From the NCBI RefSeq assembly GCF_000022265.1, contig NC_011979.1, positions 1,560,001 through 1,592,000 on the forward strand: a stretch of DNA of 32,000 bases, read 5' to 3'. Under the pieces are notes generated by a model. It saw nothing but the letters and a program-made list of their open reading frames with translations, was not told the origin of the DNA and did not search any database. The DNA is from Geotalea daltonii FRC-32 (GTDB taxonomy: Bacteria > Desulfobacterota > Desulfuromonadia > Geobacterales > Geobacteraceae). The position numbers and the translations under genes are program-made. Shown here in pieces: positions 3,003 to 29,171 of this stretch; the stretch's first letter is position 1; every line of letters starts with the position of its first letter.

Positions 3003-3069
3003 CCCCCTGGAAAGAGAAAGCAGATGATCAAGTGGATCAATGGAATGACGGGTTCGAAGAAGCGATGCT

Positions 3070-4257: not shown

Positions 4258-4530
4258 AGTCTCCCACCCCAAGGAAAGAAATAAATTCAAATTTTGCTTG
4301 GATTGTATTTGCTCTGTAACGTGTAGTTTTTCATTAATTTACTATACTCTGTGAAGGCTTTTGTATAAACCTTTTGGTAGGTGCATTCAAGGTTAATTTT
4401 GATGATGGCAGTATTTGTAGGCGCGGCAGATATAGGGCAATTGCATAAAAGCGAATATCATTGGCCTCTTTTCATAACTACACACCTGCTTAGCTTTTTA
4501 TAGAGGCATGGACTGGGGACGTTGCATCGA

Positions 4531-4565
4531 AACAAAAAGGGTTTACAGCTGCGCGCTGTAAACCC
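4531..4565 (-). terminator. Rho-independent terminator downstream of tRNA-Thr
   Basis: On the minus strand: GGGTTTACAGC-GCGC-GCTGTAAACCC hairpin followed by TTTTTGTT. Confidence 0.6.
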
Positions 4566-4575
4566 TTGTAGTTAC

Positions 4576-4651
<76 letters not shown>

Positions 4652-4716
4652 CAATCGAGCTATTCTATTATATCAATTCCTGCGTCAAGTCAACCCATTT
4701 GCAGGCATACGGTCAT

Positions 4717-13131: not shown

Positions 13132-13174
13132 TCACCTTCTTCACAGTACTTTGGTCAATTGACGGGAGGCTTAA

Positions 13175-14443: not shown

Positions 14444-14641
14444 CTGCGCCTATCAGATCTCACCGGCAATATATCTGTAGCTGTTGCAGGTCCTTCGACT
14501 GAGGATGGTATTCTGGAACGCAAAAAAATTGACAACCCGGCCGGCCCAGCTGCAGATGAGTCCGCCGAAAACAAAAGCAGGGGAAAGCAGTCAAAATGCC
14601 TGACTCCGGGCGCTCTGTTTTTTTTCGCCCTGACAGCATTT

Positions 14642-16813
14642 TTGCTACGTTCCTTACCCTGGAAGAACTTTGTCGGCCTGGACGGTCAATACCTATTCTA
14701 CGGCCCTGACAGTTATGACCATCTTCGGCGTATAACCCTGGGCATGACCAGCTTTCCAGCCGTTCCCAGCTTTGATTCCTATTATGGCTATCCCCTCGGT
14801 ACCGGCCAGATATGGTCACCGCTCTTCGATTATCTCATTTCCGCTCTTGTGCTGCTGTTCGGGGGGGATGTCCATACGGCTCATACGCTGGGATTCTGGC
14901 TTCCTCCGGTTCTTTCCTTTTTCACAATTTTTATGGTTTATGCAGCAGGCGTACGATTTTTCGGCAGAAGAGCGGGTTTTGTTGCAGCAGGCGTTACTGC
15001 TCTGCTGCCGGGTCACATCATCTATTCCCTTGTCTCCGAGCTTGACCACCATGTTGCCGAACCGATGGTCTGCCTGGCAATTGTGATCTCCCACCTGAAA
15101 GCCTTTGAACATCTTGACGAAGGGAGCCCGACAAAAGTCGACTGGTTGAGCACCGGCGGCTTGATGGTATTTGCTCTCCTGATCTGGCGCGGCTCGGTGA
15201 TTTTCTGGGGGATTTTTTTTCTGGCCCTTGCTGTGCAGATCATAGCCGAAAGAGTTTCTCGACGGGACGCAAAAAATGTGTCCCGATATGGGCGCAATGC
15301 CTGCCTTTTTGCGGCTCTGCTGCTTTTGCCAGTGTGCTCCTTCGACCTGTGGGGGACTGCACAGGGAGTAAGTTTCGGCATCATTTCATGGTTCCATGTT
15401 ATTTTGCTGGCTTCATTTGCTTTGTGTCTCCACCATTTAGGTAACCTGCAGACAATCAAAATGAAGTTTCATGCAGTCACTGTTACTGCGGGCATAGCTG
15501 CTTTGGTAGTATTTGCTCCAGGAGTTAAAAGGTTTTTTTTCGAACTGCTATCAGGGATTTCGGTAATCGGCGGGAAAGATCCCTGGCTGGATTCCATTTC
15601 AGAGCTGCGCCCGATGCTTTTCCCTGCCGGTAAATTTGATCTCCGCCATGCCACTGAAACCATGAGCTTTCTCTACTGGCTTGTCCCTGCTGCTTTAATC
15701 CTGTCCTGCATTCGGTGGCGCAACAGCAGCTTCAGGGATTTCCGCTACTCGGTATTCATCGTCTGGGGTGGAGTGCTCTGGTTAATTCCCTTTTTTCGCG
15801 AGCGATATATTCATCTGGCTGCACTTGCCACTGCGCTGTCAGCAGGATTACTTTTCCTTTACTGGACCGAGAGAGCTTCGACATTTTTGAAAAGATACTA
15901 CGCCTGCGCTGCAGCATGCCTGTTACTATTGTTACTGATCAGCCCGTCTGCAGCTTATATCAAGGACCTTCCCAATATCACCCTGCCCGACCATGAGAAA
16001 TCGGATCTTATGGCTTCTCTTGCCTGGCTTCGGGAAAATACTCCAGCTACCTCCTTTTTTCTTTCAGCGGAAAAGGTTCCGGAGTACGGCGTGCTATCTG
16101 ACTGGGGCCTTGGCGCATACATAGACTATATTGCAAGACGACCGACAGTCTCGACAAATTTTGGCTGGGAGACCCATGGCCTTTTCGAGTCGGCATCTTT
16201 CCTGACCAGCACCAAGCCGGAGGATGCAGAAAAGATCCTGCGTCTGAACAAGGTTCGCTATCTTTTTCTCAATGAAGTCACCGGGAGTCTTCCACGCCTG
16301 AAATCAATTGCTGAATTCGGCATCAGGAAGAGCAGTTCAACAAGTTCTGTGCAAACTTTTAACCCTTTGGCTACAATGTATTACAGGCTTTACATCCAGA
16401 ATGGCTCGATTTACCAGGTGGGGGGGAATACAGAACATGCGCTGGGTAAATACCGTCTGGTATTTGAATCTGCAAATGGTTTTGTTGATCCCTATGTGGG
16501 ATTTGTCAGCCATTACAAAATATTCGAGCTGGTGCCTGGCGCTGTCATAAAGGGCAGAGTCCAGCCCGGTAAAAATATTTCACTAAAATTGCTGATCAGT
16601 ACTCAGGCGGGCAGACCCTTTACATACCGCGAAGAAATAATAGCCGGAAGCGATGGTGAGTTTTCCATTGTCGTCCCTTATTCGACAACGGGTAACGCTG
16701 CCGCAGGCGTGGCTCCAGCTGGTAAATACAGCATAACTGCAGGAAATGAAAATTTTCTGGTCCATGTCAACGAGGCAGCCATTCAATTCGGAGAAGTGAT
16801 TCAAATAAATTGA
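14642..16813 (+). CDS. GT-C fold polytopic membrane glycosyltransferase, STT3/AglB/PglB-like oligosaccharyltransferase family (N-terminus probably upstream, see findings)
   Basis: The first-loop motif GPDSYDHLRR resembles the D-x-D/YYHxR loop of AglB/STT3. About 12-13 hydrophobic segments are followed by a soluble C-terminal domain. LSDWGLGAYIDYIARRPTVSTNF resembles the WWDYG catalytic motif region. The frame stays open upstream and encodes a TM1-like segment (ALFFFALTAFLL). Confidence 0.65.
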   Translation: MLRSLPWKNFVGLDGQYLFYGPDSYDHLRRITLGMTSFPAVPSFDSYYGYPLGTGQIWSPLFDYLISALVLLFGGDVHTAHTLGFWLPPVLSFFTIFMVYAAGVRFFGRRAGFVAAGVTALLPGHIIYSLVSELDHHVAEPMVCLAIVISHLKAFEHLDEGSPTKVDWLSTGGLMVFALLIWRGSVIFWGIFFLALAVQIIAERVSRRDAKNVSRYGRNACLFAALLLLPVCSFDLWGTAQGVSFGIISWFHVILLASFALCLHHLGNLQTIKMKFHAVTVTAGIAALVVFAPGVKRFFFELLSGISVIGGKDPWLDSISELRPMLFPAGKFDLRHATETMSFLYWLVPAALILSCIRWRNSSFRDFRYSVFIVWGGVLWLIPFFRERYIHLAALATALSAGLLFLYWTERASTFLKRYYACAAACLLLLLLISPSAAYIKDLPNITLPDHEKSDLMASLAWLRENTPATSFFLSAEKVPEYGVLSDWGLGAYIDYIARRPTVSTNFGWETHGLFESASFLTSTKPEDAEKILRLNKVRYLFLNEVTGSLPRLKSIAEFGIRKSSSTSSVQTFNPLATMYYRLYIQNGSIYQVGGNTEHALGKYRLVFESANGFVDPYVGFVSHYKIFELVPGAVIKGRVQPGKNISLKLLISTQAGRPFTYREEIIAGSDGEFSIVVPYSTTGNAAAGVAPAGKYSITAGNENFLVHVNEAAIQFGEVIQIN

Positions 16814-16873
16814 GCTGAAATCCAGATGGGGAAACCTGATCTGATACGTCAATCAACGGGGAGTTTACGAATA

Positions 16874-17371
16874 ATGAGCAAATCTCTTGTTTTAATCGTC
16901 ATGGGAAGTGAATCTGATCTGCCGGTAATGGAGGAAGCAGCAAAAGTATTGAAAGAGTTCGGCGTGTCCCACGAGATGCGCATCTCCTCGGCGCACCGTG
17001 CTCCCAAGAAAACCGGGCTTATGGCTGCAGAGGCACGGGATCGTGGTGTCAGGGTCATCATCGCCGGCGCCGGGATGGCTGCCCATCTGGCCGGGGTGGT
17101 GGCTGCAGAGACGACTCTGCCTGTCATAGGTGTGCCGATGCCTGGTGGCGCCCTCAATGGCGTTGATGCATTATATTCAACGGTCCAGATGCCCGGAGGG
17201 ATACCCGTGGCGACCATGGCGATCGGCAAAGCCGGGGCGAAAAATGCCGGCTTGTTCGCCGTGCAGATACTTGCGCTGGCAGACAATGAACTGGCCGGGA
17301 AGCTGGCTGTCTTCCGGCAGAGCATGGCCGATGAAGTGGAAGAAAAGGATGCCAGATTACTGACATCATAA
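16874..17371 (+). CDS. purE: N5-carboxyaminoimidazole ribonucleotide mutase
   Basis: VLIVMGSESDLPVM…, SAHR and IIAGAGMAAHLAG motifs. The ATG at 16874 has a GGGGAG RBS; the ORF track's start at 16826 adds an unlikely extension. Confidence 0.9.
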   Translation: MSKSLVLIVMGSESDLPVMEEAAKVLKEFGVSHEMRISSAHRAPKKTGLMAAEARDRGVRVIIAGAGMAAHLAGVVAAETTLPVIGVPMPGGALNGVDALYSTVQMPGGIPVATMAIGKAGAKNAGLFAVQILALADNELAGKLAVFRQSMADEVEEKDARLLTS

Positions 17372-17595: not shown

Positions 17596-17623
17596 TTGAC
17601 AATAACTGGCTGCCTGTATTAAT
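17596..17623 (+). promoter_or_regulatory. Sigma70-type promoter of ppcA
   Basis: Perfect -35 TTGACA (17596-17601), a 16-nt spacer, then an extended -10 TGtATTAAT (17615-17623). It lies about 40 nt upstream of the AAGGAGG RBS. Confidence 0.55.
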
Positions 17624-17665
17624 TTTTCGCATGTTTTTTATTTTAATGTGAAGGAGGTGACTCGA

Positions 17666-17938
17666 ATGAAAAAGATTTTTGTTGCGGTTGTACTGACCCT
17701 TACTTGTGCAGTTGCTGCCATGGCAGCTGATACCATTTCACTGCCTGCAAAGAATGGTAACGTAACCTTCGAGCACAAGAAGCACCAGGAATCCCTGAAA
17801 GACTGCAAGGCCTGCCACGAGAAGGGCCCGGGCAAGATTGAAGGCTTCGGCAAGGATGCCGCTCACAAGCTTTGCAAAGGTTGCCACGAAACAAAGAAGG
17901 CCGGCCCGACCAAATGCGGGGAGTGCCACAAGAAGTAG
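17666..17938 (+). CDS. ppcA: Periplasmic triheme cytochrome c7 (PpcA family)
   Basis: Signal peptide …AAMA/AD, then three CXXCH motifs (CKACH, CKGCH, CGECH). The mature sequence is nearly collinear with G. sulfurreducens PpcA as recalled (…KNG.V.F.HK.HQ…CHEKGPGKIEGFGK…GPTKCGECHKK). An AAGGAGGTG RBS precedes ATG 17666. Confidence 0.92.
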   Translation: MKKIFVAVVLTLTCAVAAMAADTISLPAKNGNVTFEHKKHQESLKDCKACHEKGPGKIEGFGKDAAHKLCKGCHETKKAGPTKCGECHKK

Positions 17939-17965
17939 TAGCGCGATTTAAATCTGGTGATCGAG

Positions 17966-17997
17966 AAGGGATGACATTTGCTTGTCATCCCTTTTTT
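17966..17997 (+). terminator. Rho-independent terminator of ppcA
   Basis: GGGATGACA-TTTGCT-TGTCATCCC perfect 9-bp stem followed by TTTTTT. Confidence 0.85.
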
Positions 17998-18029
17998 AGT
18001 TTCAAGGCGGAGCTTAATCAAATTTTATT

Positions 18030-18058
18030 TTGCCGCGGTTGATGATTTAGTTTATACT
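18030..18058 (+). promoter_or_regulatory. Possible sigma70 promoter for the resB operon
   Basis: TTGCCG-N17-TATACT located between the ppcA terminator and resB. Motif match only. Confidence 0.3.
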
Positions 18059-18116
18059 GCCCTGTCGGTTACGGTTTCCCCACCGAAGACGATCACAAAT
18101 AACTCAGGAGACAGCC

Positions 18117-19484
18117 TTGACAACAAACAATCGCGGATTTGCACAAACGTTGTGGGATTTTTTCTGTTCACTGAAGCTTTCCATCTTCCTTCTTATCGGC
18201 CTTGCCTTAACGTCCATTATCGGCACGGTCATCCCCCAGGTGCCGGTCCCCCAGGAATACCTTCAGACCATCACTCCCTTTAAGATGCAGCTCTATGAGA
18301 AGCTTGGATTCTTCGACATGTACCACTCCTGGTGGTTCATTCTGCTTCTCTATCTTTTGACGGTCAACCTCATTGCCTGCTCCATCAAAAGGCTGCCGCG
18401 GGTATGGAAGATTGTTTCCGAACCGACGCTGGTCATGGATGAGGGATTTGAAAGGTCGCTTTCCCATACACACGAAATCAAAGTTCCAGGCAGCGCTCCA
18501 GCCTTGAAGGACAAAATGGCTGCATTTCTCAAAGCCGAATTCGCCGAGCCGACTGTGACCGAGGCTGGCGGCGAATATCACTTATTCGCCCAAAAAAGCC
18601 CCTATTGCCGTCTTGGCGTATACGTAGTCCATCTGAGCATTATTATTATTTTCATTGGCGCGCTTATCGGCTCCTTTTTCGGGTACAAGGCCTATGTCAA
18701 CATCGCCGAAGGTACCGGCGTAGATTCTGTTGAGAGCCGGTCAGGCAAGAACATCCCTCTGGGATTCTCCGTCAGATGTGAAAAATTTGCCGTATCATTT
18801 TACGATACCGGTGCACCAAAGGAATTCAAAAGTATCCTCACGGTTCTGGAAAACGACAAGCCTGTTCCAGGCTATGAAAATGTTAAAGTTATCGTCAACG
18901 ACCCGCTTACCTACAAAGGCATCACATTCTATCAGTCTTCCTACGGGGCTGCCGGCGATACACTTTATCGTTTCTCTGTCAGAAGCCGAAATGGCGGACA
19001 GCCTGTCCCCCTGATCGCCCACGAGGAAGACCGGGTACCGCTGCCTGATGGTGGTTTCATGCAGATCATCGGTGTTGCGCCTGAGGTCGGCAGTGACTTC
19101 CCCGGTTGTTCAGGGCCCGGGGCCAAGCTGGAGATTACCCGCCCCAACGGCAAAAAAGAATACGCCATAGTGCTGCTTAATCCCGCTTGCCGCGATTTCG
19201 ATGAAAAACGTGGCAGTGACCTCATCTTCACTTTTGACGGCAAAGATGAAAAGTTCTATACCGGACTACAGGTTGCCAAGGATCCAGGGGTATGGGTGGT
19301 CTGGCTTGGTTGCTCCCTGATGGTGGTAGGCATTTGCATGGCGTTCTTCATGTCACATAAACGCATCTGGATCAGAGTCGCCAATGGTCGTGTTACGTTA
19401 GGGGGGACTGCCAGCAAGAATCCTGCAGGATTTGAGCTTTTATTCCAGGAACTGGCTGCCAAGCTCGACAGTAGTATTAAATAA
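18117..19484 (+). CDS. resB: Cytochrome c biogenesis protein ResB/CcsB (System II)
   Basis: Typical ResB N-terminus (LWDFFCSLKLSIFLLIGLALTSIIGTVIPQ), a large periplasmic domain, and a C-terminal TM segment. The TTG start has an AGGAG RBS. Confidence 0.9.
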   Translation: MTTNNRGFAQTLWDFFCSLKLSIFLLIGLALTSIIGTVIPQVPVPQEYLQTITPFKMQLYEKLGFFDMYHSWWFILLLYLLTVNLIACSIKRLPRVWKIVSEPTLVMDEGFERSLSHTHEIKVPGSAPALKDKMAAFLKAEFAEPTVTEAGGEYHLFAQKSPYCRLGVYVVHLSIIIIFIGALIGSFFGYKAYVNIAEGTGVDSVESRSGKNIPLGFSVRCEKFAVSFYDTGAPKEFKSILTVLENDKPVPGYENVKVIVNDPLTYKGITFYQSSYGAAGDTLYRFSVRSRNGGQPVPLIAHEEDRVPLPDGGFMQIIGVAPEVGSDFPGCSGPGAKLEITRPNGKKEYAIVLLNPACRDFDEKRGSDLIFTFDGKDEKFYTGLQVAKDPGVWVVWLGCSLMVVGICMAFFMSHKRIWIRVANGRVTLGGTASKNPAGFELLFQELAAKLDSSIK

Positions 19485-19539
19485 GTCAATACATTACTCT
19501 CTAAAAACCCAACTGTAGCCACAGCGGAGGAAAGATCGA

Positions 19540-20388
19540 ATGTCCAGTTCCATGCTCTTTAACGTTACGACAATTTCTTACATGCTCTCAACGTTGCTAT
19601 TTCTGGCATTTCTTGCCACTAAAAACAAAAGCATAGGGCTTTCCGGTACCATTGCTGCAGGTTTCGGCTTTATAGTCCAGACGACCGCCATCGGCCTTCG
19701 CTGGAAGGAATCCTACGATCTGGGACGCGGACATGCTCCATTGTCCAATCTCTTTGAATCGGTAGTGTTCTTCGCTTGGACCATCGTCCTTATTTTTCTG
19801 ATCATCGACTTCAAGTACAAATACAGGGCTGTCGGTTTTTTCGTGGTACCCTTTGCCCTGTTAGGCATGGCTTGGGCCCAGCTTGGCCTTGACAGCGGCA
19901 TCGAGCCATTGGTGCCTGCTCTGCAGAGTAACTGGCTTTTGTATCATGTAGTCACCTGTTTTCTGGGTTATGCTGCATTTGCAGTAGCCTGTGGCCTCTC
20001 CATCATGTATCTCATTCGTGAAAAACAGGAGGATTCGTCGGCTTCTTCACCGGCAGGCGGGGTAATCGGAATGTTTCCCTCCGTCAAAGTTCTGGACGAC
20101 CTGAATTACAAGGCGATCATGATCGGTTTTCCCCTCTTGACCCTCGGCATCGTCACCGGCGCTGCCTGGGCAAACTATGCCTGGGGCACATACTGGAGCT
20201 GGGACCCTAAGGAAACCTGGTCACTCATAGTCTGGTTCGTATATGCTGCATTCCTCCACGCACGCATAACCAGAGGCTGGGTCGGCAGAAGGGCAGCCAT
20301 CCTTTCCATCGTCGGATTTGCCGCTACCATTTTCTGCTATCTCGGCGTCAACCTTTTCCTGTCCGGCCTGCATAGTTACGGCAAGTAA
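19540..20388 (+). CDS. ccsA: Cytochrome c biogenesis protein CcsA/ResC (System II heme handling)
   Basis: Polytopic membrane protein with the tryptophan-rich WWD-type motif WGTYWSWDPKETWSL and conserved histidines. Confidence 0.9.
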   Translation: MSSSMLFNVTTISYMLSTLLFLAFLATKNKSIGLSGTIAAGFGFIVQTTAIGLRWKESYDLGRGHAPLSNLFESVVFFAWTIVLIFLIIDFKYKYRAVGFFVVPFALLGMAWAQLGLDSGIEPLVPALQSNWLLYHVVTCFLGYAAFAVACGLSIMYLIREKQEDSSASSPAGGVIGMFPSVKVLDDLNYKAIMIGFPLLTLGIVTGAAWANYAWGTYWSWDPKETWSLIVWFVYAAFLHARITRGWVGRRAAILSIVGFAATIFCYLGVNLFLSGLHSYGK

Positions 20389-20440
20389 AAAAAATTCCCG
20401 TCCTGAGCCACCTGACTCGCACATGGATTAAATAGCTAAA

Positions 20441-21451
20441 ATGGTGATGACAACACCTATACGTATAAAATACAGGCCTACGTTCCTGTCTGTCTTGACC
20501 ATATTGTTGTCTTTGCTGGGTGCCGGTACCCTGAGAGCAGAACCCCTCGACTGCCGACGCTGTCACAGTGATTTGGAAAAAGCCAGGGTAACGCATTCAC
20601 CATTTGCTGCCGGTGAATGCTCATCCTGTCATCAGCTTGCTCTGGACAAACGGCATCCTGAACAGAAAGAGGCCATTGTTCTTGTCAGCGATGGTTCAAA
20701 GCTCTGCAGCCAATGTCACGAAGCATTGGACACCGCCAAAAATGTTCATGGTCCGGTGGCATCAGGCGATTGCATTTTCTGTCACACACCGCATTCGTCA
20801 CCAAACGACAAGCTACTCAAGGATACAGGCATTGCCCAGTGTCTGAACTGTCATGAGAATAAATTCCAGCAAAAGTACATGCATGGACCTGTTGTTGAGG
20901 GTAAATGTTTTATTTGCCATGATCCCCATCAATCCGACAATCCTTATATTCTGAAGATGGGCCTTCCTGCACTCTGTTTGAGCTGCCACGATGCCTCGGC
21001 CATGTCCGGCAAATCAATCCACGCCCCGGTCAGGAAAGGTAACTGCCTGGCCTGTCATGATTCCCACGGCTCACCATACCGCAAGCACCTGCGAAAAGAT
21101 TTTCAGGAAAATTTTTATCTGCCCTTCAGCCCTGACAATTTTGCCCTTTGTTTTGACTGCCATGCGTCGGAGATGATCCTTGACCGGCGTACTGACAGCC
21201 TGACCGATTTCCGTGACGGTGACCGCAATCTGCATTATCTGCATGTCAACAAAATAGATAAAGGCCGGTCTTGCAAAGCCTGCCATGATGCACATGCGGC
21301 AGAACAGGCAAAATTAATCAAAAGAAAGGTCCCGGGTTTCGGAAAGTGGGAGATCCCCATTGAATTCCAAAAGACCTCTACCGGAGGCACATGTATCGTT
21401 GGCTGTCACAAGCCCAAATCCTATGACAGAATAAAAACCAATGAATTCTGA
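20441..21451 (+). CDS. Periplasmic multiheme c-type cytochrome (10 CXXCH + 1 CX3CH), paired-CXXCH architecture
   Basis: Signal peptide (…GTLRA/EP). Heme motifs are CRRCH, CSSCH, CSQCH, CIFCH, CLNCH, CFICH, CLSCH, CLACH, CFDCH and CKACH, plus CIVGCH. The recurring pattern H(G/A)P…G.C..CH.PH is typical of doubled-CXXCH domains. Confidence 0.9.
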   Translation: MVMTTPIRIKYRPTFLSVLTILLSLLGAGTLRAEPLDCRRCHSDLEKARVTHSPFAAGECSSCHQLALDKRHPEQKEAIVLVSDGSKLCSQCHEALDTAKNVHGPVASGDCIFCHTPHSSPNDKLLKDTGIAQCLNCHENKFQQKYMHGPVVEGKCFICHDPHQSDNPYILKMGLPALCLSCHDASAMSGKSIHAPVRKGNCLACHDSHGSPYRKHLRKDFQENFYLPFSPDNFALCFDCHASEMILDRRTDSLTDFRDGDRNLHYLHVNKIDKGRSCKACHDAHAAEQAKLIKRKVPGFGKWEIPIEFQKTSTGGTCIVGCHKPKSYDRIKTNEF

Positions 21452-21493
21452 TATCAAGGTTACGGTCTTCACATTGGTAAGAGGAGATTCTTT

Positions 21494-22480
21494 TTGAAAG
21501 GGAAACCAGCTTTTTTTGCGGCGTTATTGGTTCTGTTTGCGGGTTTTTCCTCTGACGCGGCAATAACCTTTATCTATCCCTCTCCGAAAACCCAGGTCAA
21601 ACGTTCTGATTACCTGATCCTTAAAATGAATAACCCGCAGATTTCCGGGATCAAGGTAACTGTTAACGGCCTGGCCAGTGATACGATGCTGATCGGGTCC
21701 GCCGAGTACAAGAAGGCATTTCAGGACCTGGTAATACTCCAGCCGGTATGGGATGGTGGAAAGAACGAGATTATCGTTGAGGGGTACGATGGGGAGAAAA
21801 AGATTGAAGCGACCTCAACGGAAATTTTTTTCAGCGACAAGCCTGCCGCAAATGTTCCGTCCCAATATAAGCGGAATGTCATGCACGTACCTGAACTGGA
21901 AAAATATTGCAGCCCATGCCATGACATGAATCCCACTACAGCACAGCTGGACACCAACATGGACAAAAAAAATCCATGCTATGGTTGTCACAAGAAAATG
22001 GGGAATACTAATTTTGTGCATGGTCCGGCCGGAACCTTTTCTTGTGCTTACTGCCACAACCTCAAGGGAATGCCAAAATATGCCGTGATGCTCCGCGATG
22101 CCGCGTTGTGCAATGAATGTCACGCCGATAAGGCGACTGAATTCAAAAAGAAAAAATTCCTCCATGGTCCCGTTGAAGCCGGAATGTGCGAAATCTGTCA
22201 CGACCCCCACGGCAGCAACTTCACCAGCCAGTTACGGCTACCCATAAACGAACTTTGTTTGTCGTGCCATGAATCTGTCGCCAAGGAAACACATGTGGTG
22301 AGGTTGACAGATGGGGCTGGCCACCCGCTGAAAGACAAGCCGGATCCCTCAAAACCAGGCTCGGGGCGTGATCTTTCCTGTATCTCCTGTCATAATCCCC
22401 ATGGGGGAGAGGCCCGGTTCTTTTTCCAGAACAATGTGGAAGACAGGATGCAGCTCTGCCAGGTCTGCCATAATAAATAA
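21494..22480 (+). CDS. Octaheme c-type cytochrome with a ~110-aa non-heme N-terminal beta-rich domain
   Basis: Signal peptide (…FSSDA/A). Eight CXXCH motifs are present (CSPCH, CYGCH, CAYCH, CNECH, CEICH, CLSCH, CISCH, CQVCH), all in the C-terminal two thirds. TTG start. Confidence 0.9.
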   Translation: MKGKPAFFAALLVLFAGFSSDAAITFIYPSPKTQVKRSDYLILKMNNPQISGIKVTVNGLASDTMLIGSAEYKKAFQDLVILQPVWDGGKNEIIVEGYDGEKKIEATSTEIFFSDKPAANVPSQYKRNVMHVPELEKYCSPCHDMNPTTAQLDTNMDKKNPCYGCHKKMGNTNFVHGPAGTFSCAYCHNLKGMPKYAVMLRDAALCNECHADKATEFKKKKFLHGPVEAGMCEICHDPHGSNFTSQLRLPINELCLSCHESVAKETHVVRLTDGAGHPLKDKPDPSKPGSGRDLSCISCHNPHGGEARFFFQNNVEDRMQLCQVCHNK

Positions 22481-22510
22481 TTCGATCCTGTAAAAGTAAA
22501 AGGAGTTTGT

Positions 22511-23608
22511 ATGAAAAGTGTAAAAGCAGTAGTCGTTGTTTTGCTGTACCTTTCGATTTCAAGCATCATCGCCGGCTGTGCGTCAGCACCCGTCGTGAAA
22601 AACCGTGTCTTTTGGCCACCCCTTCCGGATGATCCCAAAATCGAATGGCTGGGAGCATATCGTACGGAGAATGATCTGCCAAAAACGGGCAGTCAAAAGT
22701 TTTTTAAAAATATCATTGGCGAAGAGGAGCAGATCAGGTTCAACCGGGCCATGGGCATAGCGTCCGACGGCTCCGGCAAGGTCTACATTACCGACCCATC
22801 CGAAATGCAGGTTGTCGTCTATGATTTTAACAAGAACAAGGTCCATGTCTTTGCCGAAAAAGACAAGGAACTGCAATCCATGATGAAAGAACCTATGGGC
22901 ATAGCCGTTGACAACAACGCAAATATCTATGTTTCCGATGCGAGTGCTAAAAAAGTGTTCGTTTTCAATAGGGACGAGAAACTGATCAACACCATCAACC
23001 TGACGCAAGACACAAAGCGCCCTTTTGGCATTGCAATCGATAATGATCGTAAAAGGCTCGTTGTGGCAGACCCTGTTGTTCACAACCTTGAAGTCTATGA
23101 CCTCAATGGCAAACACATGAAAACCATCGGCAAACTCGGCTCAGGACCGGGGGAATTTTATGGGCCCACCTGGGTTACCGTATTGAGAAATGGTAACATT
23201 GCTGTTTCCGAATCCAGGAATTGCCGGCTGCAGCTGCTTGACCCGGAGGGTAAATCGCTTCAGATTATGGGCCAGCGGGGAGACCGTCCAGGCGAACTGC
23301 AGATGCCGAAGGGAATAGCTGCGGACTCTGAAAATCATCTTTATTCCGTTGACGGCAGAGCCAATGCGATCAATGTCTTCTCGGAAACCGGGGAATATCT
23401 GCTGACCGTTGGGGGAGGCTACTCCGCTGAAAGAAAGATCGCTCCCGGCGGTTTTTTGCTCCCCATCGGCATATTCATCGACCAGAAAGATACCATCTAT
23501 GTGGTAGATCAAATGAATCTCCGCTTCCAGATCTTTCAATATATGAATGACAAGTATAAGAAAGAGAACCCTGTTGCAGCGGGTTCCTCCTCTTCTGTTG
23601 CCAAGTGA
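22511..23608 (+). CDS. NHL-repeat beta-propeller lipoprotein
   Basis: Lipobox IIAG-C at residues 19-23. Repeated NHL-type units are present (PMGIAVDNNANIYVSD, PFGIAIDNDRKRLVVAD, PTWVTVLRNGNIAVSE, PKGIAADSENHLYSVD, PIGIFIDQKDTIYVVD). Confidence 0.85.
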   Translation: MKSVKAVVVVLLYLSISSIIAGCASAPVVKNRVFWPPLPDDPKIEWLGAYRTENDLPKTGSQKFFKNIIGEEEQIRFNRAMGIASDGSGKVYITDPSEMQVVVYDFNKNKVHVFAEKDKELQSMMKEPMGIAVDNNANIYVSDASAKKVFVFNRDEKLINTINLTQDTKRPFGIAIDNDRKRLVVADPVVHNLEVYDLNGKHMKTIGKLGSGPGEFYGPTWVTVLRNGNIAVSESRNCRLQLLDPEGKSLQIMGQRGDRPGELQMPKGIAADSENHLYSVDGRANAINVFSETGEYLLTVGGGYSAERKIAPGGFLLPIGIFIDQKDTIYVVDQMNLRFQIFQYMNDKYKKENPVAAGSSSSVAK

Positions 23609-23742
23609 TCTTGTCAACGGCTTTTTATTTTGCGGTTATATGGCTGGGTAAAACGTTATTGAACGATGAGTGCGCCGCGATTGTCAAATCTTGTTGGATT
23701 GAAAATATAGCAATAACAGCTCCTTAGGTTTGGCTGTTCTGC

Positions 23743-23758
23743 TGGCACGCAAGTTGCT
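23743..23758 (+). promoter_or_regulatory. Sigma54 (RpoN) -24/-12 promoter upstream of omcE
   Basis: TGGCAC-GCAAG-TTGCT matches the TGGCAC-N5-TTGCW consensus with correct spacing. It lies about 150 nt upstream of the omcE ATG. Confidence 0.65.
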
Positions 23759-23910
23759 ATATGTTAAATCAAATCTAATATTGCTTTCTAAGCATCAGGC
23801 GCATTCATTCAATAACGAAAGGAAGGTGAAAGAACTAAGTATCACGGCAGTCGGTTTTACCCAGGCATCTAAATCAAGCAACAAAAAAATGAAAGAGGAG
23901 GATTATCAAG

Positions 23911-24600
23911 ATGAAAAAAGTTTTATTGACAGCAGCAGCAGTACTTACCATGGCCGGTAGTGCAATGGCCGCATCAGTCGTCAGCAGCAAGCATGACCTT
24001 TCGACCGGTGGCCCACAGACTGTGTACAACACCAACACCCAGCAGGTATGTGTTTTCTGTCACACCCCTCACAATTCCAAAGAGACACGGGCTCTGTGGA
24101 ACAGAAACAGCGCCACTTCTACAAGCTACAAACTGTATACATCCGGTGTCTGGGCCGAGCAGGCATCCTGGTTTGAGAGCGGCCAAAAAGGAGTGATCAA
24201 ATCTGACAGCCCTTCACTCATGTGCATGAGCTGCCATGACGGCAGCAGCCTCAAGGCCGTTGTAAACAAACCGAAAGATGTAACCGCTCTTTCAGCAAGC
24301 AGCGACACAATCGGATCCAACCCTGCCAACCTTGGTACAGACCTGACCAACGATCATCCTATCAACATCAAGTATGCTGATTACCGGGCCAATACCCAGT
24401 ACAGCGGTTCTGTTGCTACGCTTGCTACCGAGGATACCACAACTGGTACGGTTGGCGCTTCTACCCTCAAGCTGCCGCTTGCCAAGGGCGTTACCGTTGA
24501 GTGCAACACCTGCCACAACGTCCATGACCCCGCAAACGTGCCTTTCCTCCGTGGAACCATGGGTAAAAGTGCCCTTTGCACCGCATGTCATCTGAAGTAG
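23911..24600 (+). CDS. omcE: OmcE-like secreted tetraheme c-type cytochrome (filament/nanowire-forming family)
   Basis: Signal peptide (…GSAMA/AS) and four CXXCH motifs (CVFCH, CMSCH, CNTCH, CTACH) in 229 aa. The SKHDLS…VCVFCHTPH start is typical of Geobacter outer-surface cytochromes. The position after ppcA-resB-ccsA-cyt-cyt-NHL matches the G. sulfurreducens ppcA…omcE order as recalled. A GAGGAGGA RBS is present. Confidence 0.75.
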   Translation: MKKVLLTAAAVLTMAGSAMAASVVSSKHDLSTGGPQTVYNTNTQQVCVFCHTPHNSKETRALWNRNSATSTSYKLYTSGVWAEQASWFESGQKGVIKSDSPSLMCMSCHDGSSLKAVVNKPKDVTALSASSDTIGSNPANLGTDLTNDHPINIKYADYRANTQYSGSVATLATEDTTTGTVGASTLKLPLAKGVTVECNTCHNVHDPANVPFLRGTMGKSALCTACHLK

Positions 24601-24617
24601 TTTGAGATGTTAAGCCA

Positions 24618-24647
24618 AGAGGAGGGGGTAACCCCTCCTCTTTTTTT
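24618..24647 (+). terminator. Strong rho-independent terminator of omcE
   Basis: GAGGAGGGG-GTAA-CCCCTCCTC (9-bp stem, GNRA loop) followed by T7. Confidence 0.85.
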
Positions 24648-24882
24648 GTCCCATGAATTTTCCCCCTCAGTTTGCTCGCTTGCGGCACCTTTCTCAAGTT
24701 ACCTGCCCACTCCCTCAAACTTGCCCGTTTGTTTGGCGAATTGGATAACCATCTCCAGGTAGGCTGGTCTGTTTTTTGACTGCCTGATTTGGGTTAAATG
24801 GCTAGTCGAAGTTGCTTCTCTGTGCATTAATAGACAATAACTCCTTATCATCTGTAAAATAAGCCAGTTACAGTGTTTTTAG

Positions 24883-24912
24883 TTGCGTCAAAAAAAGCCG
24901 GCAAGGTATAGT
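24883..24912 (+). promoter_or_regulatory. Possible sigma70 promoter for the barrel-glycosyltransferase operon
   Basis: TTGCGT-N18-TATAGT about 58 nt upstream of ATG 24970. Motif match only. Confidence 0.3.
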
Positions 24913-24969
24913 AATTGCAGAAAATGCTACAGATAGAGATGGCTACTGTTTATAACTATCAGAGTTGTT

Positions 24970-27210
24970 ATGAAATCAATGTCTTATAAAAACCTGCTCA
25001 ACAGGGTGAAGTTTTGCCGACTTCGGCTCGTGCTGGGGCTTCTTTTGGCAAGCAGTTCCGTGTCTTTGCCTATGGCCCAGGCTGCCCTCGTCGGTGAAGC
25101 GGAGCTTGGCTACGTTGACTACAGGGCCGATGTCAACGGAGCCAGGTCTGTGGACGCTTCAGCTTTCAGGCAGCGTTACTCGCTACTGTATTCCAAGTCT
25201 GATGTCCTTGCCAATGGCCGGCTCGGCAAATACCGATTTTCTTTAGGCTATGAATGGGCCGCCGTCGACTCCAAGATCAAGGAATATTCAGGGGTGCAGA
25301 CTTCGGTGGAATCATCATCGGTCAGCGCCGGCCACCTGCTTTTCCGCGGCGACGTGATCTTGTCCCCGCAGCAACTGCCGATCAAGTTGAGAGCATTCAG
25401 CCATGATCTGAAGCGGGCCAGCTTTTCAACCATCGGTTATTATGGCGCTTCAAATTTGATTGAGCCGGGGATAACCAATTCGATCTTTGGGGGAACAAAT
25501 ATCCAAAGTGGTGTTTATGCGGAAGTAGGTCTGAAAGAGACCATGAGCCAGGGGGGGGCGAGCTTTTTTGCCCGGATGCCGCGTCTTTATATCGATTATC
25601 GCGATAACATCATCAAGGACCTGGACAGCTTATCGCCCACTGACAGCAGAATGAAAAAGCTTTCCTTTGTCAGCCTCAACAAAAAAGATAACTGGTTTCA
25701 TGTCAGAACGATAAACTACACCGATTATCTCCGGTCAACCAATGATTACAACGAGACGCAGGTGATTCTGGGCACCATAGACCAGCACATGGACCGCAAA
25801 TGGGTCGATTTCTCCAACTGGATAAAGCTTTCTGCGGATGGGCAGTTCATCAAGCATACGGAATACAACGACAATTATGAATCATATGAGCTCAACCTTT
25901 TCGGCATTGCATCCAGGAGCCGTTGGGAAGCCAGGTCCTTCAATACCTTCAGACGTACCCTTGACCTAAGTGGGCTCACCTACGATACGAAAATTCCCCT
26001 TTACGTGACTGGATATGCCGGTCCTGATACGGACTGGCGGGTCCGGGTCAGTACCGAACAAAGCAAGGTAAGTCTTATTCAGGACTATGACACCTCAGAC
26101 ACCCTGGTCTCCTATAGAATAAATACCTTCAAACGCGAGGCCTTTACTCTTGCGCATACAGGTGCCATTGAAAGCTACGAGCACACTGACATAGGTAAGA
26201 CGTTGAGCCTGGATGCACGTGTTGAGATCGCCAGCTCCAGGAGATTCTCGACCAAGTTGGGAATTATTGGCAGCTACAACATCACCTCGGCGAAAAACCA
26301 GCCAATTAATGCAAGCGAAAATAGCTCGATGACACAGGTATTCGATTTAAAAGGCGTCTACACCCCTACCAATTCATGGAAATTTGAATTGGAAGAAAAT
26401 GTCACCATAGGAAGTGGCAATAGCTCCGACGACCTGACCACTCAGAGTTACAACACCCAGAGCAGCTCCGTTGGCACTGGTGTCTCATCTTTTAATGTGC
26501 CTGACGACAGCTATACACGCTATCGGACCATGGTTAAAGCCGACTGGCAACCAGCAGCACGCTTGAAGGTGGGTTTTACCGTCACTGATGATTTACTGCA
26601 GGCAAAGGGCAAAAAGACGGAACATGGTACGGAGTATGCCAATACCATCGATTTCACCGACAAGCGCCTAACTGCAAGATTGACGACGCGTTATACCACA
26701 TCCACCTTATCCAGTGGTTCATTGTCCGGATTCAGCAGTAACGGGCATATCTCTTATTCCCCCGACCGTTCTCTGGACAACTCGGTCTCTTATTATTACG
26801 GCAATATTAACGACCGTGACGGATCAAAATACAGCAGCTTCACTTTAAGGCAGAGCGCCAACTATTTTCTCTATACCGATTATGGAATAAGCCGCCGTAT
26901 TCTCGAACTGAATCAGGGCCTTGAATACGAGGGACAGTCGTACAGTACAGGCCTCAGGAGGACCACCAAAAGCCTGATCGGCGGCTTCAGGTATTACCCG
27001 ATCAGCCGGCTTTTTCTTGCCGGTAGAGCAAAATACTCACTCCTCACCTATGAGACACAGACAAATGCTACCCAGAGCATATATAATGCAACTATAGGCA
27101 TGAATTTCAACCTGATACAGGCAACCATCGATTACAGCCTTGGCCGTCAGAATGGTAACGGTAACAGGTTTGAAAGACGTTTTGAAGCCAACCTGAAAAA
27201 AGTATTTTAG
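24970..27210 (+). CDS. Large predicted outer-membrane beta-barrel protein (746 aa), function unknown
   Basis: Signal peptide ending PMAQA/AL. The mature protein has no cysteine and no long hydrophobic helix. It is rich in Y/S/T/N/G, with many short alternating amphipathic stretches (YRFSLGYEW, YSLLYSKS, FTLRQSANYFLY). It ends in an aromatic residue (…NLKKVF), the classic BAM-recognition signature. Confidence 0.6.
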   Translation: MKSMSYKNLLNRVKFCRLRLVLGLLLASSSVSLPMAQAALVGEAELGYVDYRADVNGARSVDASAFRQRYSLLYSKSDVLANGRLGKYRFSLGYEWAAVDSKIKEYSGVQTSVESSSVSAGHLLFRGDVILSPQQLPIKLRAFSHDLKRASFSTIGYYGASNLIEPGITNSIFGGTNIQSGVYAEVGLKETMSQGGASFFARMPRLYIDYRDNIIKDLDSLSPTDSRMKKLSFVSLNKKDNWFHVRTINYTDYLRSTNDYNETQVILGTIDQHMDRKWVDFSNWIKLSADGQFIKHTEYNDNYESYELNLFGIASRSRWEARSFNTFRRTLDLSGLTYDTKIPLYVTGYAGPDTDWRVRVSTEQSKVSLIQDYDTSDTLVSYRINTFKREAFTLAHTGAIESYEHTDIGKTLSLDARVEIASSRRFSTKLGIIGSYNITSAKNQPINASENSSMTQVFDLKGVYTPTNSWKFELEENVTIGSGNSSDDLTTQSYNTQSSSVGTGVSSFNVPDDSYTRYRTMVKADWQPAARLKVGFTVTDDLLQAKGKKTEHGTEYANTIDFTDKRLTARLTTRYTTSTLSSGSLSGFSSNGHISYSPDRSLDNSVSYYYGNINDRDGSKYSSFTLRQSANYFLYTDYGISRRILELNQGLEYEGQSYSTGLRRTTKSLIGGFRYYPISRLFLAGRAKYSLLTYETQTNATQSIYNATIGMNFNLIQATIDYSLGRQNGNGNRFERRFEANLKKVF

Positions 27211-27246: not shown

Positions 27247-28206
27247 ATGGAATTTCTGAGAATATCCATAATCATTCCGGTAAAGCCTGCTGGAACCGTC
27301 AAGGCTTTACGGAACCTCGCCTGTGTTGAGTATCCTCCCGAACTGTTCGAGATATTTGTCGCAGAAGGCCGCAGACCCGGCACCCAGAGAAATCAAGCTG
27401 CTGCCAAGGCAACGGGAGACATTTTATACTTTCTTGATGATGACTCTCTGGTTGAACCACATTGTCTGGCCAAACTGGCTTCTCATTACTTGGGGGATCC
27501 TGCTGTGGCAGCTGTCGGCGGCCCTTCACTTACCCCTGACGGGGATTCGGCTTTGCAAAAGGCGATCGGTAAAGTATTTATCTCGCTTTTCGGCGGTGGC
27601 TGTAATCGCAATCGCTACCGGCAAAACGGAATGATGCGGGAAACTGACGACAGCGAACTTATCCTGTGCAACCTCAGCTTTCGCAGGGACGTATTCATGC
27701 AGAGTGGCGGGTTGGACGAAAGGCTTTATCCCAACGAGGAGAACGAATTGCTGCACAGGCTCAAAGAAGCAGGGAAACGGCTGCTCCATGATCCTGACCT
27801 TGCAGTTTTTCGCAGTCAACGAGCTTCTTATCCTGCCTTCGTCAAACAGATCTTTGGCTATGGGCGGGGCAGGGGAGAGCAGGTACGCATAAGCAAGGAG
27901 ATAAAAATCTTTACCTTCGGGCCATCATTGTTTATCTTGTATCTGCTATTTGTGCCTTTTTTCTTTGGAACATTATATATAGCTCCATTGGTGGTTTACT
28001 TAGTCCTTGACCTGTGGTTTTCATTCTTGGAAGGGCCTAAGAACGAGCACAGATTTGCTTGGCTCAAAGTAATCCTTTTCCCCACACTGCATTTAAGCTA
28101 TGGCGCAGGTTTAATCGCAGGTCTGGTTCTGCCACGCTTCCATAAAGCTGCGGCTGATTCCGGTGCAGTGGAAATAACAAGAATGAAGAACATGGATGCA
28201 AATTGA
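27247..28206 (+). CDS. Family 2 glycosyltransferase with C-terminal transmembrane segments
   Basis: ISIIIPVKP…, an FLDDD (DxD) motif and a GT-A fold pattern. Two to four hydrophobic helices lie in the last ~100 aa. Confidence 0.8.
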   Translation: MEFLRISIIIPVKPAGTVKALRNLACVEYPPELFEIFVAEGRRPGTQRNQAAAKATGDILYFLDDDSLVEPHCLAKLASHYLGDPAVAAVGGPSLTPDGDSALQKAIGKVFISLFGGGCNRNRYRQNGMMRETDDSELILCNLSFRRDVFMQSGGLDERLYPNEENELLHRLKEAGKRLLHDPDLAVFRSQRASYPAFVKQIFGYGRGRGEQVRISKEIKIFTFGPSLFILYLLFVPFFFGTLYIAPLVVYLVLDLWFSFLEGPKNEHRFAWLKVILFPTLHLSYGAGLIAGLVLPRFHKAAADSGAVEITRMKNMDAN

Positions 28207-28226
28207 TCGATGTACGGGAGCATTTC

Positions 28227-29171
28227 TTGGACTTGAGTGTAGTCGTACCAATTTATAACGAAGAAGAAAATATTCCGGAGCTATGCCGCAGGGTGTTCGC
28301 CGCTCTTGATCAAAGCGGACTCTCCTATGAACTTATACTTGTGGATGACGGCTCGGTAGACGAGTCATTTAATCGTTTAAAAGCAGTAGCCGCCCATAAA
28401 CCTTTTGTGAAGATCATCAGGTTTCGACGCAATTTTGGCCAGACTGCTGCCATGGCTGCAGGCTTCAATGCTGCTAGTGGCAGCGTTGTAATCCCCATGG
28501 ACGGAGACCTGCAGAATGACCCTTCAGATATCCCTCGCCTTGTAAAGAAGATCGATGAGGGGTTTGACGTTGTCTCCGGTTGGCGTAAAAATCGCCGTGA
28601 CACCTTCGTCAACCGCAAATTGCCTTCACTTATTGCCAATCGTCTCATCTCCAAGATGACAGGGGTTCATTTGCATGACTACGGTTGCACCCTGAAGGCC
28701 TACCGCCGGGAGGTGCTTGATGCGATAAATCTATATGGGGAAATGCATCGATTCGTCCCTGCGCTTGCCTCTCAGGTCGGGGCAAAGGTCGCAGAACTCC
28801 CGGTTGCCCATCATCCTCGTCTACATGGCGTCAGTAAATATGGAATATCCAGGACCACCCGCGTCATTCTGGACCTGATGACCGTTAAATTCCTTCTTAC
28901 CTATTCGACCAAACCGATACAGCTTTTTGGCAAGTGGGGGATTTATGCCTTATTTGCCGGAATGATGAGTGGTGCTGCCGTCGTCTATATGAAAATTTTC
29001 GAACAGATGAGCATGAACCGGAATCCCTTACTTATTTTGACTGCTTTTCTGCTGTTCATGGGGGTCCAATTCATCGTCCTGGGGCTTTTGGGTGAGTTGA
29101 ATGCCCGCACCTATTATGAGGCCCAATCCAAGCCCATCTACGTTGTTAAAGAAAAAGTCAACATTGCCTGA
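28227..29171 (+). CDS. Polyprenyl-phosphate glycosyltransferase (GT2; DPM1/GtrB/ArnC-like)
   Basis: LSVVVPIYNEEENI, LILVDDGSVD, FRRNFGQTAAM, IPMDGDLQNDP and GWRKNRRD motifs, plus two C-terminal TM helices. The start TTG 28227 has GGGAG 6 nt upstream; TTG 28203, which overlaps the previous stop, is the alternative. Confidence 0.85.
   Translation: MDLSVVVPIYNEEENIPELCRRVFAALDQSGLSYELILVDDGSVDESFNRLKAVAAHKPFVKIIRFRRNFGQTAAMAAGFNAASGSVVIPMDGDLQNDPSDIPRLVKKIDEGFDVVSGWRKNRRDTFVNRKLPSLIANRLISKMTGVHLHDYGCTLKAYRREVLDAINLYGEMHRFVPALASQVGAKVAELPVAHHPRLHGVSKYGISRTTRVILDLMTVKFLLTYSTKPIQLFGKWGIYALFAGMMSGAAVVYMKIFEQMSMNRNPLLILTAFLLFMGVQFIVLGLLGELNARTYYEAQSKPIYVVKEKVNIA

Follow-up and report, generated by a model that had tools for sequence, protein, structure and literature searches.

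The omcE region of Geotalea daltonii FRC-32: a cytochrome-nanowire cluster with candidate partners for export and wiring

The ppcA gene of Geobacter sulfurreducens (GSU0612) has its counterpart in G. metallireducens (Gmet_2902), omcE (GSU0618; Gmet_2896) is in a syntenic location there, and the ResB/ResC-like pair GSU0613-0614 is conserved as well, such pairs having been suggested to serve cytochromes encoded nearby (PMC2700814). According to a 2025 preprint, the frame that runs from purHDE and resB/ccsB to ffh is syntenic in nearly all Desulfuromonadia, and a cluster built around OmcE, the subunit of a cytochrome nanowire, is inserted in the purHDE-ffh frame only in some genomes (bioRxiv 10.1101/2025.10.22.684050). 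The smallest of these clusters consist of two multihaem cytochromes, two beta-propeller lipoproteins, OmcE, and a large barrel, and those of the Geobacter and Geomonas type carry 15-70 extra glycosylation genes; the barrel is presented as a putative secretion pore or anchor, the porin model of nanowire mounting is favoured, and the cluster is paralleled with the osc machinery of OmcS, citing Shen et al. 2025 (bioRxiv 10.1101/2025.10.22.684050). How nanowires pass through the outer membrane, what starts and stops them, and in what way they are linked to periplasmic carriers are acknowledged open questions (PMC12307469; bioRxiv 10.1101/2025.10.22.684050). Here we describe the corresponding locus of Geotalea daltonii FRC-32, found in a stretch of 32,000 nucleotides (nt) of contig NC_011979.1 (1,560,001 to 1,592,000), referred to below as the window, whose first letter is position 1.

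Judged from gene order and alignments, the locus is the orthologue of the G. sulfurreducens ppcA...omcE region (GSU0612-GSU0618 and the downstream barrel), that is, an OmcE cytochrome-nanowire cluster. The original prediction, a model's reading of the bare letters, had given the same order of genes for G. sulfurreducens, and this was right in respect to both the gene assignments (ppcA is GSU0612 and omcE is GSU0618; PMC2700814) and the predicted transcription units of that organism (ppcA alone, gsu0615-0616-0617, and omcE alone; PMC1829397), which match the ppcA, cytochrome-NHL operon, and omcE units of G. daltonii. The gene order, the purHDE and resB/ccsB anchor, the two cytochromes, the propeller lipoprotein, OmcE, the barrel, and the GT2/GT4 glycosyltransferases are all shared with the G. 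sulfurreducens region and the cluster of the preprint. The differences are an AglB/STT3-type oligosaccharyltransferase gene between purD and purE, a single NHL lipoprotein inside the cluster in place of the two of the minimal clusters, and an OmcE that scores only 152.7 bits (E-value, E, of 9.7e-44) against the G. sulfurreducens protein. The comparison with G. sulfurreducens rests on literature descriptions, as its locus lies outside the best 80 loci of the genome survey presented below. All genes of the locus are on the + strand, and the map of open reading frames (ORFs) is in full agreement with the earlier description; the positions, the haem counts, and the 30-55 nt gaps of the operon were all confirmed by the ORF map and the CXXCH counts. 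The genes at the centre of the analysis are the following (aa, amino acids):

20441 to 21451, + strand: 11-haem MtrA/DmsE-like periplasmic cytochrome at the GSU0615 position, 336 aa, with 10 CXXCH motifs and one CX3CH (CIVGCH)
21494 to 22480, + strand: 8-haem MtrA-like cytochrome at the GSU0616 position, 328 aa, with 8 CXXCH and a haem-free N-terminal domain of about 110 aa
22511 to 23608, + strand: NHL-repeat six-bladed beta-propeller lipoprotein at the GSU0617 position (ACM19791), 365 aa, Pfam NHL and DUF5128
23911 to 24600, + strand: omcE orthologue, predicted tetrahaem nanowire subunit (ACM19792), 229 aa, 4 CXXCH, full-length match to 7TFS and 9YUQ
24970 to 27210, + strand: predicted giant outer-membrane beta-barrel (Geob_1433, ACM19793, annotated as hypothetical), 746 aa, with a signal peptide, a C-terminus ending in KKVF, and an all-beta model

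From ppcA to the barrel gene the successive intergenic gaps measure 178, 55, 52, 42, 30, 302, and 369 nt, the last two separating omcE from the end of the NHL lipoprotein gene upstream and from the start of the barrel gene downstream.

The OmcS osc cluster, set against the locus by its descriptions, is similar: it, too, groups a filament cytochrome with a beta-propeller protein, a channel of the outer membrane, and additional periplasmic cytochromes. In the account of Shen et al. 2025 (Cell Chem Biol 32:239), OscD is reportedly beta-propeller-like, OscEFG channel-like, and OscH a prolyl-isomerase chaperone. The products of oscC, oscI, and oscJ are listed as periplasmic cytochromes (PMC13194489). 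The G. daltonii region differs by one giant barrel as opposed to the three-protein channel of osc, and by the lack of a prolyl isomerase, no such domain being found by domain searches in the window genes scanned.

The 229-aa tetrahaem protein is identified by its alignments as an OmcE-family subunit and the OmcE orthologue, as the original prediction had it. The match covers the full length of both solved subunits, G. sulfurreducens OmcE (7tfs_A; E 9.7e-44, 152.7 bits, residues 4-229 to 7-232) and the OmcE bundle structure of Desulfuromonas soudanensis WTL (9yuq_N; E 2.8e-30, residues 1-229 to 1-218). The protein has a type-I signal peptide, four haem motifs, and a faint match to the OmcA/MtrC model (E 0.002). 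It contains exactly eight histidines, four in the CXXCH motifs and four distal ligands, and all eight are invariant in the alignment of 25 homologues; the same pattern of His conservation has been reported for OmcE (bioRxiv 10.1101/2025.10.22.684050). The four CXXCH, the four distal His, the C-terminal CHxK ending, and the length (229 aa, compared with 232 for 7TFS and 218 for 9YUQ) are common to the three proteins, while the loops between the haem motifs of the solved subunits are unlike those of the G. daltonii protein. The solved subunits form filaments, and the same may hold for the G. daltonii protein.

A comparison of 23609-27210 with the G. toluenoxydans locus (L001, 9700-13303) gives nucleotide identities of 89% for the omcE coding sequence, 91% and 94% for its flanking spacers, and, highest of all, 96% for the barrel gene. 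The gene of the filament subunit thus diverges faster than the intergenic sequence on either side of it.

The co-conservation of the cluster was evaluated by scanning the OmcE alignment against 185,579 species genomes, and the counts given below refer to the best 80 loci. The record titles of these loci name Thermodesulfobacteriota, Gamma-, Beta-, and Alphaproteobacteria, Campylobacterales, Nitrospirota, Bacteroidota, Ignavibacteriaceae, Calditrichota, Gemmatimonadota, Planctomycetes, Acidobacteriota, Verrucomicrobia, KSB1, and a Frackibacter genome. An NHL homologue (E <1e-20) is present in 72 of the 80 loci and lies on the same strand within 500 nt of the OmcE homologue in 70. MtrA-like cytochromes are encoded in 30, and of the 42 loci that span at least 18 kb, 28 have a large barrel from either of two families. 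No link is conserved as widely as that of OmcE with NHL, and the constant companions of OmcE-like genes are the NHL propeller and some very large barrel, MtrA-like cytochromes being frequent, not constant.

The barrel family of the window occurs in 10 of the 80 loci, nearly all of them labelled Geobacter, Geotalea, Geobacteraceae, or Desulfuromonadales. Together with two loci anchored on the barrel itself, these make up the 12 related loci to which we refer below. In every one of the 12 the order is resB-ccsB-cytochrome-cytochrome-NHL-omcE-(NHL)-barrel, with the barrel directly downstream of omcE (besides a second NHL gene in some). The prediction that both cytochromes, the NHL lipoprotein, and the barrel co-occur and stay syntenic with omcE was therefore borne out in every related locus examined. 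In the two barrel-anchored loci the barrels are only 30-34% identical to that of the window and the order is unchanged, which argues for selection rather than recent common ancestry. A further 13 pairs of OmcE and barrel matches agree in the length of the longest contig, from which both genes appear to lie on one contig.

The second barrel family, F2 (about 680 aa), is present in 35 of the 80 loci, outside Geobacterales. The model of an F2 member is also a giant all-beta barrel (predicted local distance difference test, pLDDT, 85.4; predicted template-modelling score, pTM, 0.67), whose best template-modelling score (TM-score) is to MtrB (0.43-0.44) and which matches ushers as well. No profile similarity was found between F2 and the family of the window (hhalign probability 1.9%), and the two are treated as not detectably related, an earlier alignment having matched the C-terminal beta-signal only.

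In the typical F2 module the tetrahaem OmcE homologue is followed by NHL, F2, NHL, and a cytochrome of about 580 aa with 11 CXXCH, 24 conserved Cys, and an OmcE-like N-terminus. Examples are L008, L012, L020-L022, L032, L036, L042, L058, L066, and L077 (around position 10000 in each). The hosts are Gammaproteobacteria (Woeseiaceae, Acidiferrobacterales, Thiodiazotropha symbionts), Betaproteobacteria, Bacteroidota, Ignavibacteria, Calditrichota, Gemmatimonadota, and Planctomycetes. This distribution extends beyond the five phyla that the 2025 preprint lists. A different arrangement is seen in L027, L034, and L060 (around position 10000), where an NHL protein of about 900 aa and the OmcE homologue are followed by very large cytochromes with 16-31 CXXCH, with neither barrel family there.

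The 746-aa protein had been predicted to be an outer-membrane barrel, and its AlphaFold2 model, calculated from a 29-sequence alignment, agrees with this assignment: it is all-beta, with a mean pLDDT of 84.1, a pTM of 0.60, and about 36 strand elements. The strands were counted from the DSSP string and the lumen was calculated by textbook barrel geometry, according to which a barrel of 32-36 strands would have a C-alpha diameter estimated at about 59-64 Å, with a lumen close to 5 nm. The MtrB barrel has 26 strands. By this estimate the modelled lumen would be larger than that of a 26-strand MtrB-type barrel and comparable with the 4-6 nm diameter of cytochrome nanowires (PMC12954529). No sequence match to the protein was found in Pfam, NCBIfam, or the PDB, and Foldseek returned generic large barrels only: Deinococcus SlpA is the best (TM-score 0.44-0.47) and MtrB ranks fourth (0.29-0.33), followed by TonB-dependent transporters, LptD, and ushers. 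A search of 1.84 billion representatives with the profile of the family yielded 232 proteins at E <=1e-3, 216 of them at <1e-10 and nearly all of 700-790 aa, so the family is small and sharply bounded.

Both multihaem cytochromes contain Paired_CXXCH domains (five in the 336-aa protein), and the best PDB match of both is MtrA (6r2q_A; 1.5e-11 for the 336-aa and 1.5e-10 for the 328-aa protein). Against the DmsE-family model TIGR03508 they score 90.5 (11-haem) and 72.7 (8-haem), in comparison with a cutoff of 192.2; the matches are partial, and the haem counts are 11 and 8, not 10. In the case of the 11-haem cytochrome, 22 Cys and 22 His are conserved across 11 orthologues, which fits bis-His ligation of all haems. 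The 8-haem cytochrome has, across 13 orthologues, 16 conserved Cys, only 15 conserved His, and a conserved Met145 two residues after the first CXXCH, so that one haem has either His/Met ligation or a ligand supplied by another protein. The possibility that this cytochrome is itself an OmcE-like subunit was rejected: the hhalign probability is 90%, the confident part covers the signal peptide and the C-terminal paired CXXCH only, and the match was not used as evidence.

The NHL lipoprotein matches NHL propellers of the PDB at 3e-41. Its lipobox reads IIAG-C23, and Cys23 is retained in 13 of 13 orthologues. The cluster has one gene of this kind and the smallest clusters of the preprint have two; a second NHL gene is located between omcE and the barrel gene in L004 and L082.

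Two signals delimit omcE:

23743 to 23757, + strand: sigma-54 (-24/-12) element upstream of omcE, TGGCACGCAAGTTGC, read as TGGCAC-N5-TTGC
24617 to 24649, + strand: omcE intrinsic terminator, with an 11-bp GC-rich stem, a 4-nt loop, and T7, 17 nt past the omcE stop

The element is the sole exact match in the 32 kb (0.15 expected) and is identical in G. toluenoxydans. A GG-N10-GC motif of the -24/-12 type (0-2 mismatches) is found upstream of omcE in 12 of the 12 related loci and is therefore conserved, not a product of chance. The terminator is the strongest in the region. By these predicted signals omcE is shown to be transcriptionally insulated, and the earlier claim of an own sigma-54 promoter and a strong terminator for this gene holds.

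The idea of a barrel and assembly system among the omcE neighbours is already published, and the G. daltonii locus adds one more case of a cluster type that has been described before. The hypothesis that the two cytochromes, the NHL lipoprotein, and the barrel are candidates for OmcE export, assembly, or wiring is sound and agrees with the co-conservation; it is not new, because the preprint already describes the cluster and the 'secretion or anchor' role of the barrel, and the gsu0616::kan mutant discussed below counts against an essential role of the cytochrome operon. The locus offers a compact list of candidate parts for nanowire export and wiring in a genome distinct from that of the model organism, the same parts having been flagged by specialists. 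New are the co-conservation figures (NHL beside the OmcE homologue in 70/80 loci, the barrel downstream of omcE in 12/12), the tiny and discrete barrel family, the unrelated giant barrel in the same position in many other lineages, and the 8-haem cytochrome that is one conserved His short. If the roles proposed here are true, the heterologous production of OmcE wires would become more tractable.

The roles of the partners are putative, and the mechanism of export and wiring is one that we infer. We consider it fairly probable, taking all its parts together, that the barrel is the passage or anchor of OmcE, the NHL lipoprotein its assembly partner, and the two cytochromes a relay, with ppcA, resB, and ccsB as neighbours. 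OmcE, both cytochromes, the lipoprotein, and the barrel would be exported by Sec, and haem would be attached in the periplasm by System II (ResB/CcsB). The barrel would serve the OmcE polymer both as outer-membrane passage and as anchor, with a lumen (about 5 nm) that would admit either a folded, haem-loaded subunit or the base of the filament of about 4 nm. The NHL lipoprotein may act as a periplasmic or outer-membrane assembly factor that partners the OmcE subunit, and the 11-haem and 8-haem cytochromes would pass electrons on from carriers of the PpcA type to the end of the filament nearest the cell.

Several points weigh against this reading. The pTM of the barrel model is only 0.60, and the strand number and the lumen are estimates. 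The barrel gene is preceded by 369 nt of upstream sequence of its own and is followed 36 nt later by glycosyltransferase genes, owing to which it may be transcribed with these genes and not with omcE. In respect to the missing second propeller, no remnant of a pseudogenised NHL gene between omcE and the barrel gene was detected in the window by tblastn. The only published knockout of the cytochrome operon, gsu0616::kan of G. sulfurreducens, raised the reduction of U(VI), Fe(III) citrate, and Fe(III) hydroxide (PMC1829397), which counts against an essential role of this operon; the insertion was probably polar on gsu0617 (the NHL gene) and was uncomplemented (PMC1829397), and the redundancy of OmcS with OmcE could mask a defect.

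A more specific version, in which the giant barrel is a 'nanowire usher' for the base of the OmcE filament, the 8-haem cytochrome is the cell-proximal adaptor, and the same design is used elsewhere with the unrelated F2 barrel, seems to us improbable. One haem of the 8-haem cytochrome would then be completed in trans by the free His of the terminal OmcE subunit, and a continuous haem chain would lead from the periplasm to the filament. Chaperone-usher pili (FimD/PapC) likewise combine a subunit polymerising extracellularly with a dedicated barrel in the outer membrane and a partner in the periplasm, and ushers are among the structural matches. The differences are that Usher or PapD domains are present in none of the eight cluster proteins (Pfam), that the modelled barrel consists of nearly all strands past the signal peptide, which would leave little room for plug or periplasmic domains, and that His-haem ligation, in place of donor-strand exchange, links the OmcE subunits.

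Other explanations of the cluster differ in the function they ascribe to the barrel and its neighbours. The original prediction had seen the component logic of a porin-cytochrome conduit in the locus, and in the strict form of this idea the lumen of the barrel is occupied by the 11- or the 8-haem cytochrome, in the manner of MtrA within MtrB, while OmcE is exported otherwise (by a type II or pilus-like route) and docks. We regard such a conduit as rather unlikely. The resemblance to MtrCAB and other porin-cytochrome (Pcc) systems is real in that the genes of MtrA-like paired-CXXCH cytochromes accompany those of a large barrel and of an extracellular cytochrome. Among solved structures both MtrA-like cytochromes match MtrA best, and in part they also match DmsE-family decahaem models; MtrB ranks high among the structural matches of either barrel family (the fourth for the window barrel, the top one with TM-scores of 0.43-0.44 for F2), and MtrA-like cytochromes directly adjoin the F2 barrel in other phyla. 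The match to MtrB is, however, that of a generic barrel; the G. daltonii protein is unrelated in sequence to MtrB and OmbB (Pfam, NCBIfam, PDB) and appears much larger, with about 36 strand elements against the 26 strands of MtrB, the sheath of MtrA. The cytochromes score well under the DmsE/MtrA cutoff (90 and 73 bits against 192), and the gsu0616 knockout showed no drop in Fe(III) or U(VI) reduction. The extracellular partner in the omcE cluster is a polymerising tetrahaem protein and not a decahaem lipoprotein of the MtrC/OmcA type, the NHL lipoprotein is a constant extra component, and the link that persists across phyla is that of OmcE-NHL with a barrel, MtrA-like cytochromes being found in just 30 of the 80 loci. 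Membership of the locus in the porin-cytochrome family was rejected on the missing sequence relation to MtrB, the TM-score of about 0.3, the about 36 strand elements, and an OmcE that is not an MtrC-type lipoprotein. The earlier interpretation is in this way partly supported, its identification of the genes and their co-conservation being upheld and its porin-cytochrome assignment failing.

The proximity of the glycosylation genes raises the question of whether the barrel belongs to them, for instance as a glycan export pore for polysaccharide, and stands beside omcE through clade synteny only. The barrel gene has its own upstream region past the omcE terminator, the GT2-GT2-GT4 genes start 36 nt downstream of it, a GT2 gene is directly 3' of the barrel in most of the 12 loci, and an ABC-2 exporter gene follows the barrel in L069. 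This is nevertheless very unlikely: the barrel of L009 has no glycosyltransferase within about 6 kb, a tetratricopeptide-repeat (TPR) protein and a beta-propeller being encoded there instead; the minimal marine, alkaliphilic, and thermophilic clusters of the preprint keep the barrel without glycosylation genes (bioRxiv 10.1101/2025.10.22.684050); in other phyla an unrelated giant barrel lies inside the NHL-OmcE module with no glycosyltransferases nearby; and the barrel matches no known family of polysaccharide-export porins (Pfam, NCBIfam). The weakest reading, to which we give hardly any credence, makes the OmcE-like protein of G. daltonii a loosely bound, monomeric surface cytochrome and its neighbours independent periplasmic redox proteins kept by ancestry. 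OmcE was indeed first described as a loosely associated outer-surface cytochrome (PMC1829397), its filaments in G. sulfurreducens were found in strains without OmcS (PMC12307469), and tetrahaem OmcE-like proteins occur in quite different contexts too (L055, L027, L060). Against this stand the invariance of all residues of the filament haem chain, the four distal His included, the formation of filaments by two homologues that are 41% identical to each other, and the preservation of the gene order down to 30-34% barrel identity.

Upstream and downstream of the genes described above, the locus comprises:

11566 to 17371, + strand: purH, purD, an AglB/STT3-type oligosaccharyltransferase gene, and purE (Pfam), the same purHDE anchor as in the preprint
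17596 to 17624, + strand: sigma-70-like promoter candidate for ppcA, with TTGACA at 17596, a spacer of about 17 nt, and a weak -10
17666 to 17938, + strand: ppcA, periplasmic trihaem cytochrome c7, 3 CXXCH, ATG at 17666 after AGGAGG, the ORF opening with GTG at 17648
17969 to 17998, + strand: ppcA intrinsic terminator, GGGATGACA-N6-TGTCATCCC followed by T6, with a 9-bp stem and a 6-nt loop
18117 to 19484, + strand: resB, System II cytochrome c biogenesis, Pfam ResB 374.7 bits
19540 to 20388, + strand: ccsB (ccsA in the original prediction), System II haem lyase partner, NCBIfam cytochr_II_ccsB 309.8 bits (cutoff 187.6)
27247 to 30351, + strand: GT2, GT2, and GT4 glycosyltransferase genes (Pfam), the first one 36 nt past the barrel gene

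The omcE cluster is thus located in the purHDE...resB-ccsB region, with purH, purD, and purE followed by ppcA, resB, and ccsB, and the glycosyltransferases 3' of the barrel correspond to the glycosylation extension of the Geobacter-type clusters of the preprint. The ppcA product scores 145.6 bits against NCBIfam CytC7_Geobact (cutoff 120) and matches PpcA-family chains of the PDB at about 1e-28. The description of the whole locus as one compact module that includes ppcA, resB, and ccsB overreaches: these are probably conserved housekeeping neighbours outside any dedicated OmcE module, since, according to the preprint, the purHDE-resB-ccsB synteny is nearly universal in Desulfuromonadia, with the OmcE cluster inserted in some genomes only. 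As to the monocistronic ppcA with its own promoter and terminator, the terminator is well supported by the 9-bp hairpin, the T6 run, and a stable fold (-23.9 kcal/mol for a 72-nt stretch), even if the consensus scan did not list it. The promoter is less so; the sequence at 17596 is a plausible candidate with a weak -10, not called by the consensus scan and about 96% identical in G. toluenoxydans.

The oligosaccharyltransferase gene between purD and purE (14642-16813, + strand, 723 aa; Pfam STT3, AglB_core-like, and AglB_L1) was seen in this position again in the metagenomic locus L081. N-glycosylation of OmcE by this enzyme was considered and dropped: OmcE has no N-X-S/T sequon, which makes it an unlikely canonical target, and the barrel protein has nine. 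Downstream of the glycosyltransferases, a gene for a large beta-propeller protein (lactonase/YncE-like, with a C-terminal repeat domain) lies on the - strand from 30432 to beyond 32000, extending past the end of the window. Its homologues are found downstream of the barrel in L001, L002, L009, L014, L054, and L081, and this protein may represent the 'second propeller' of such clusters.

In the long spacers no riboswitch or small RNA was found with Rfam at gathering thresholds, the sole Rfam match being the tRNA gene at 4579-4651 (- strand). Adjoining this gene is that of an Acyl_transf_3 membrane acyltransferase (3070-4290, - strand), within a low-GC stretch at 3001-5000 (0.40-0.46, compared with about 0.5-0.6 in the flanks) that could be a small acquired insert.

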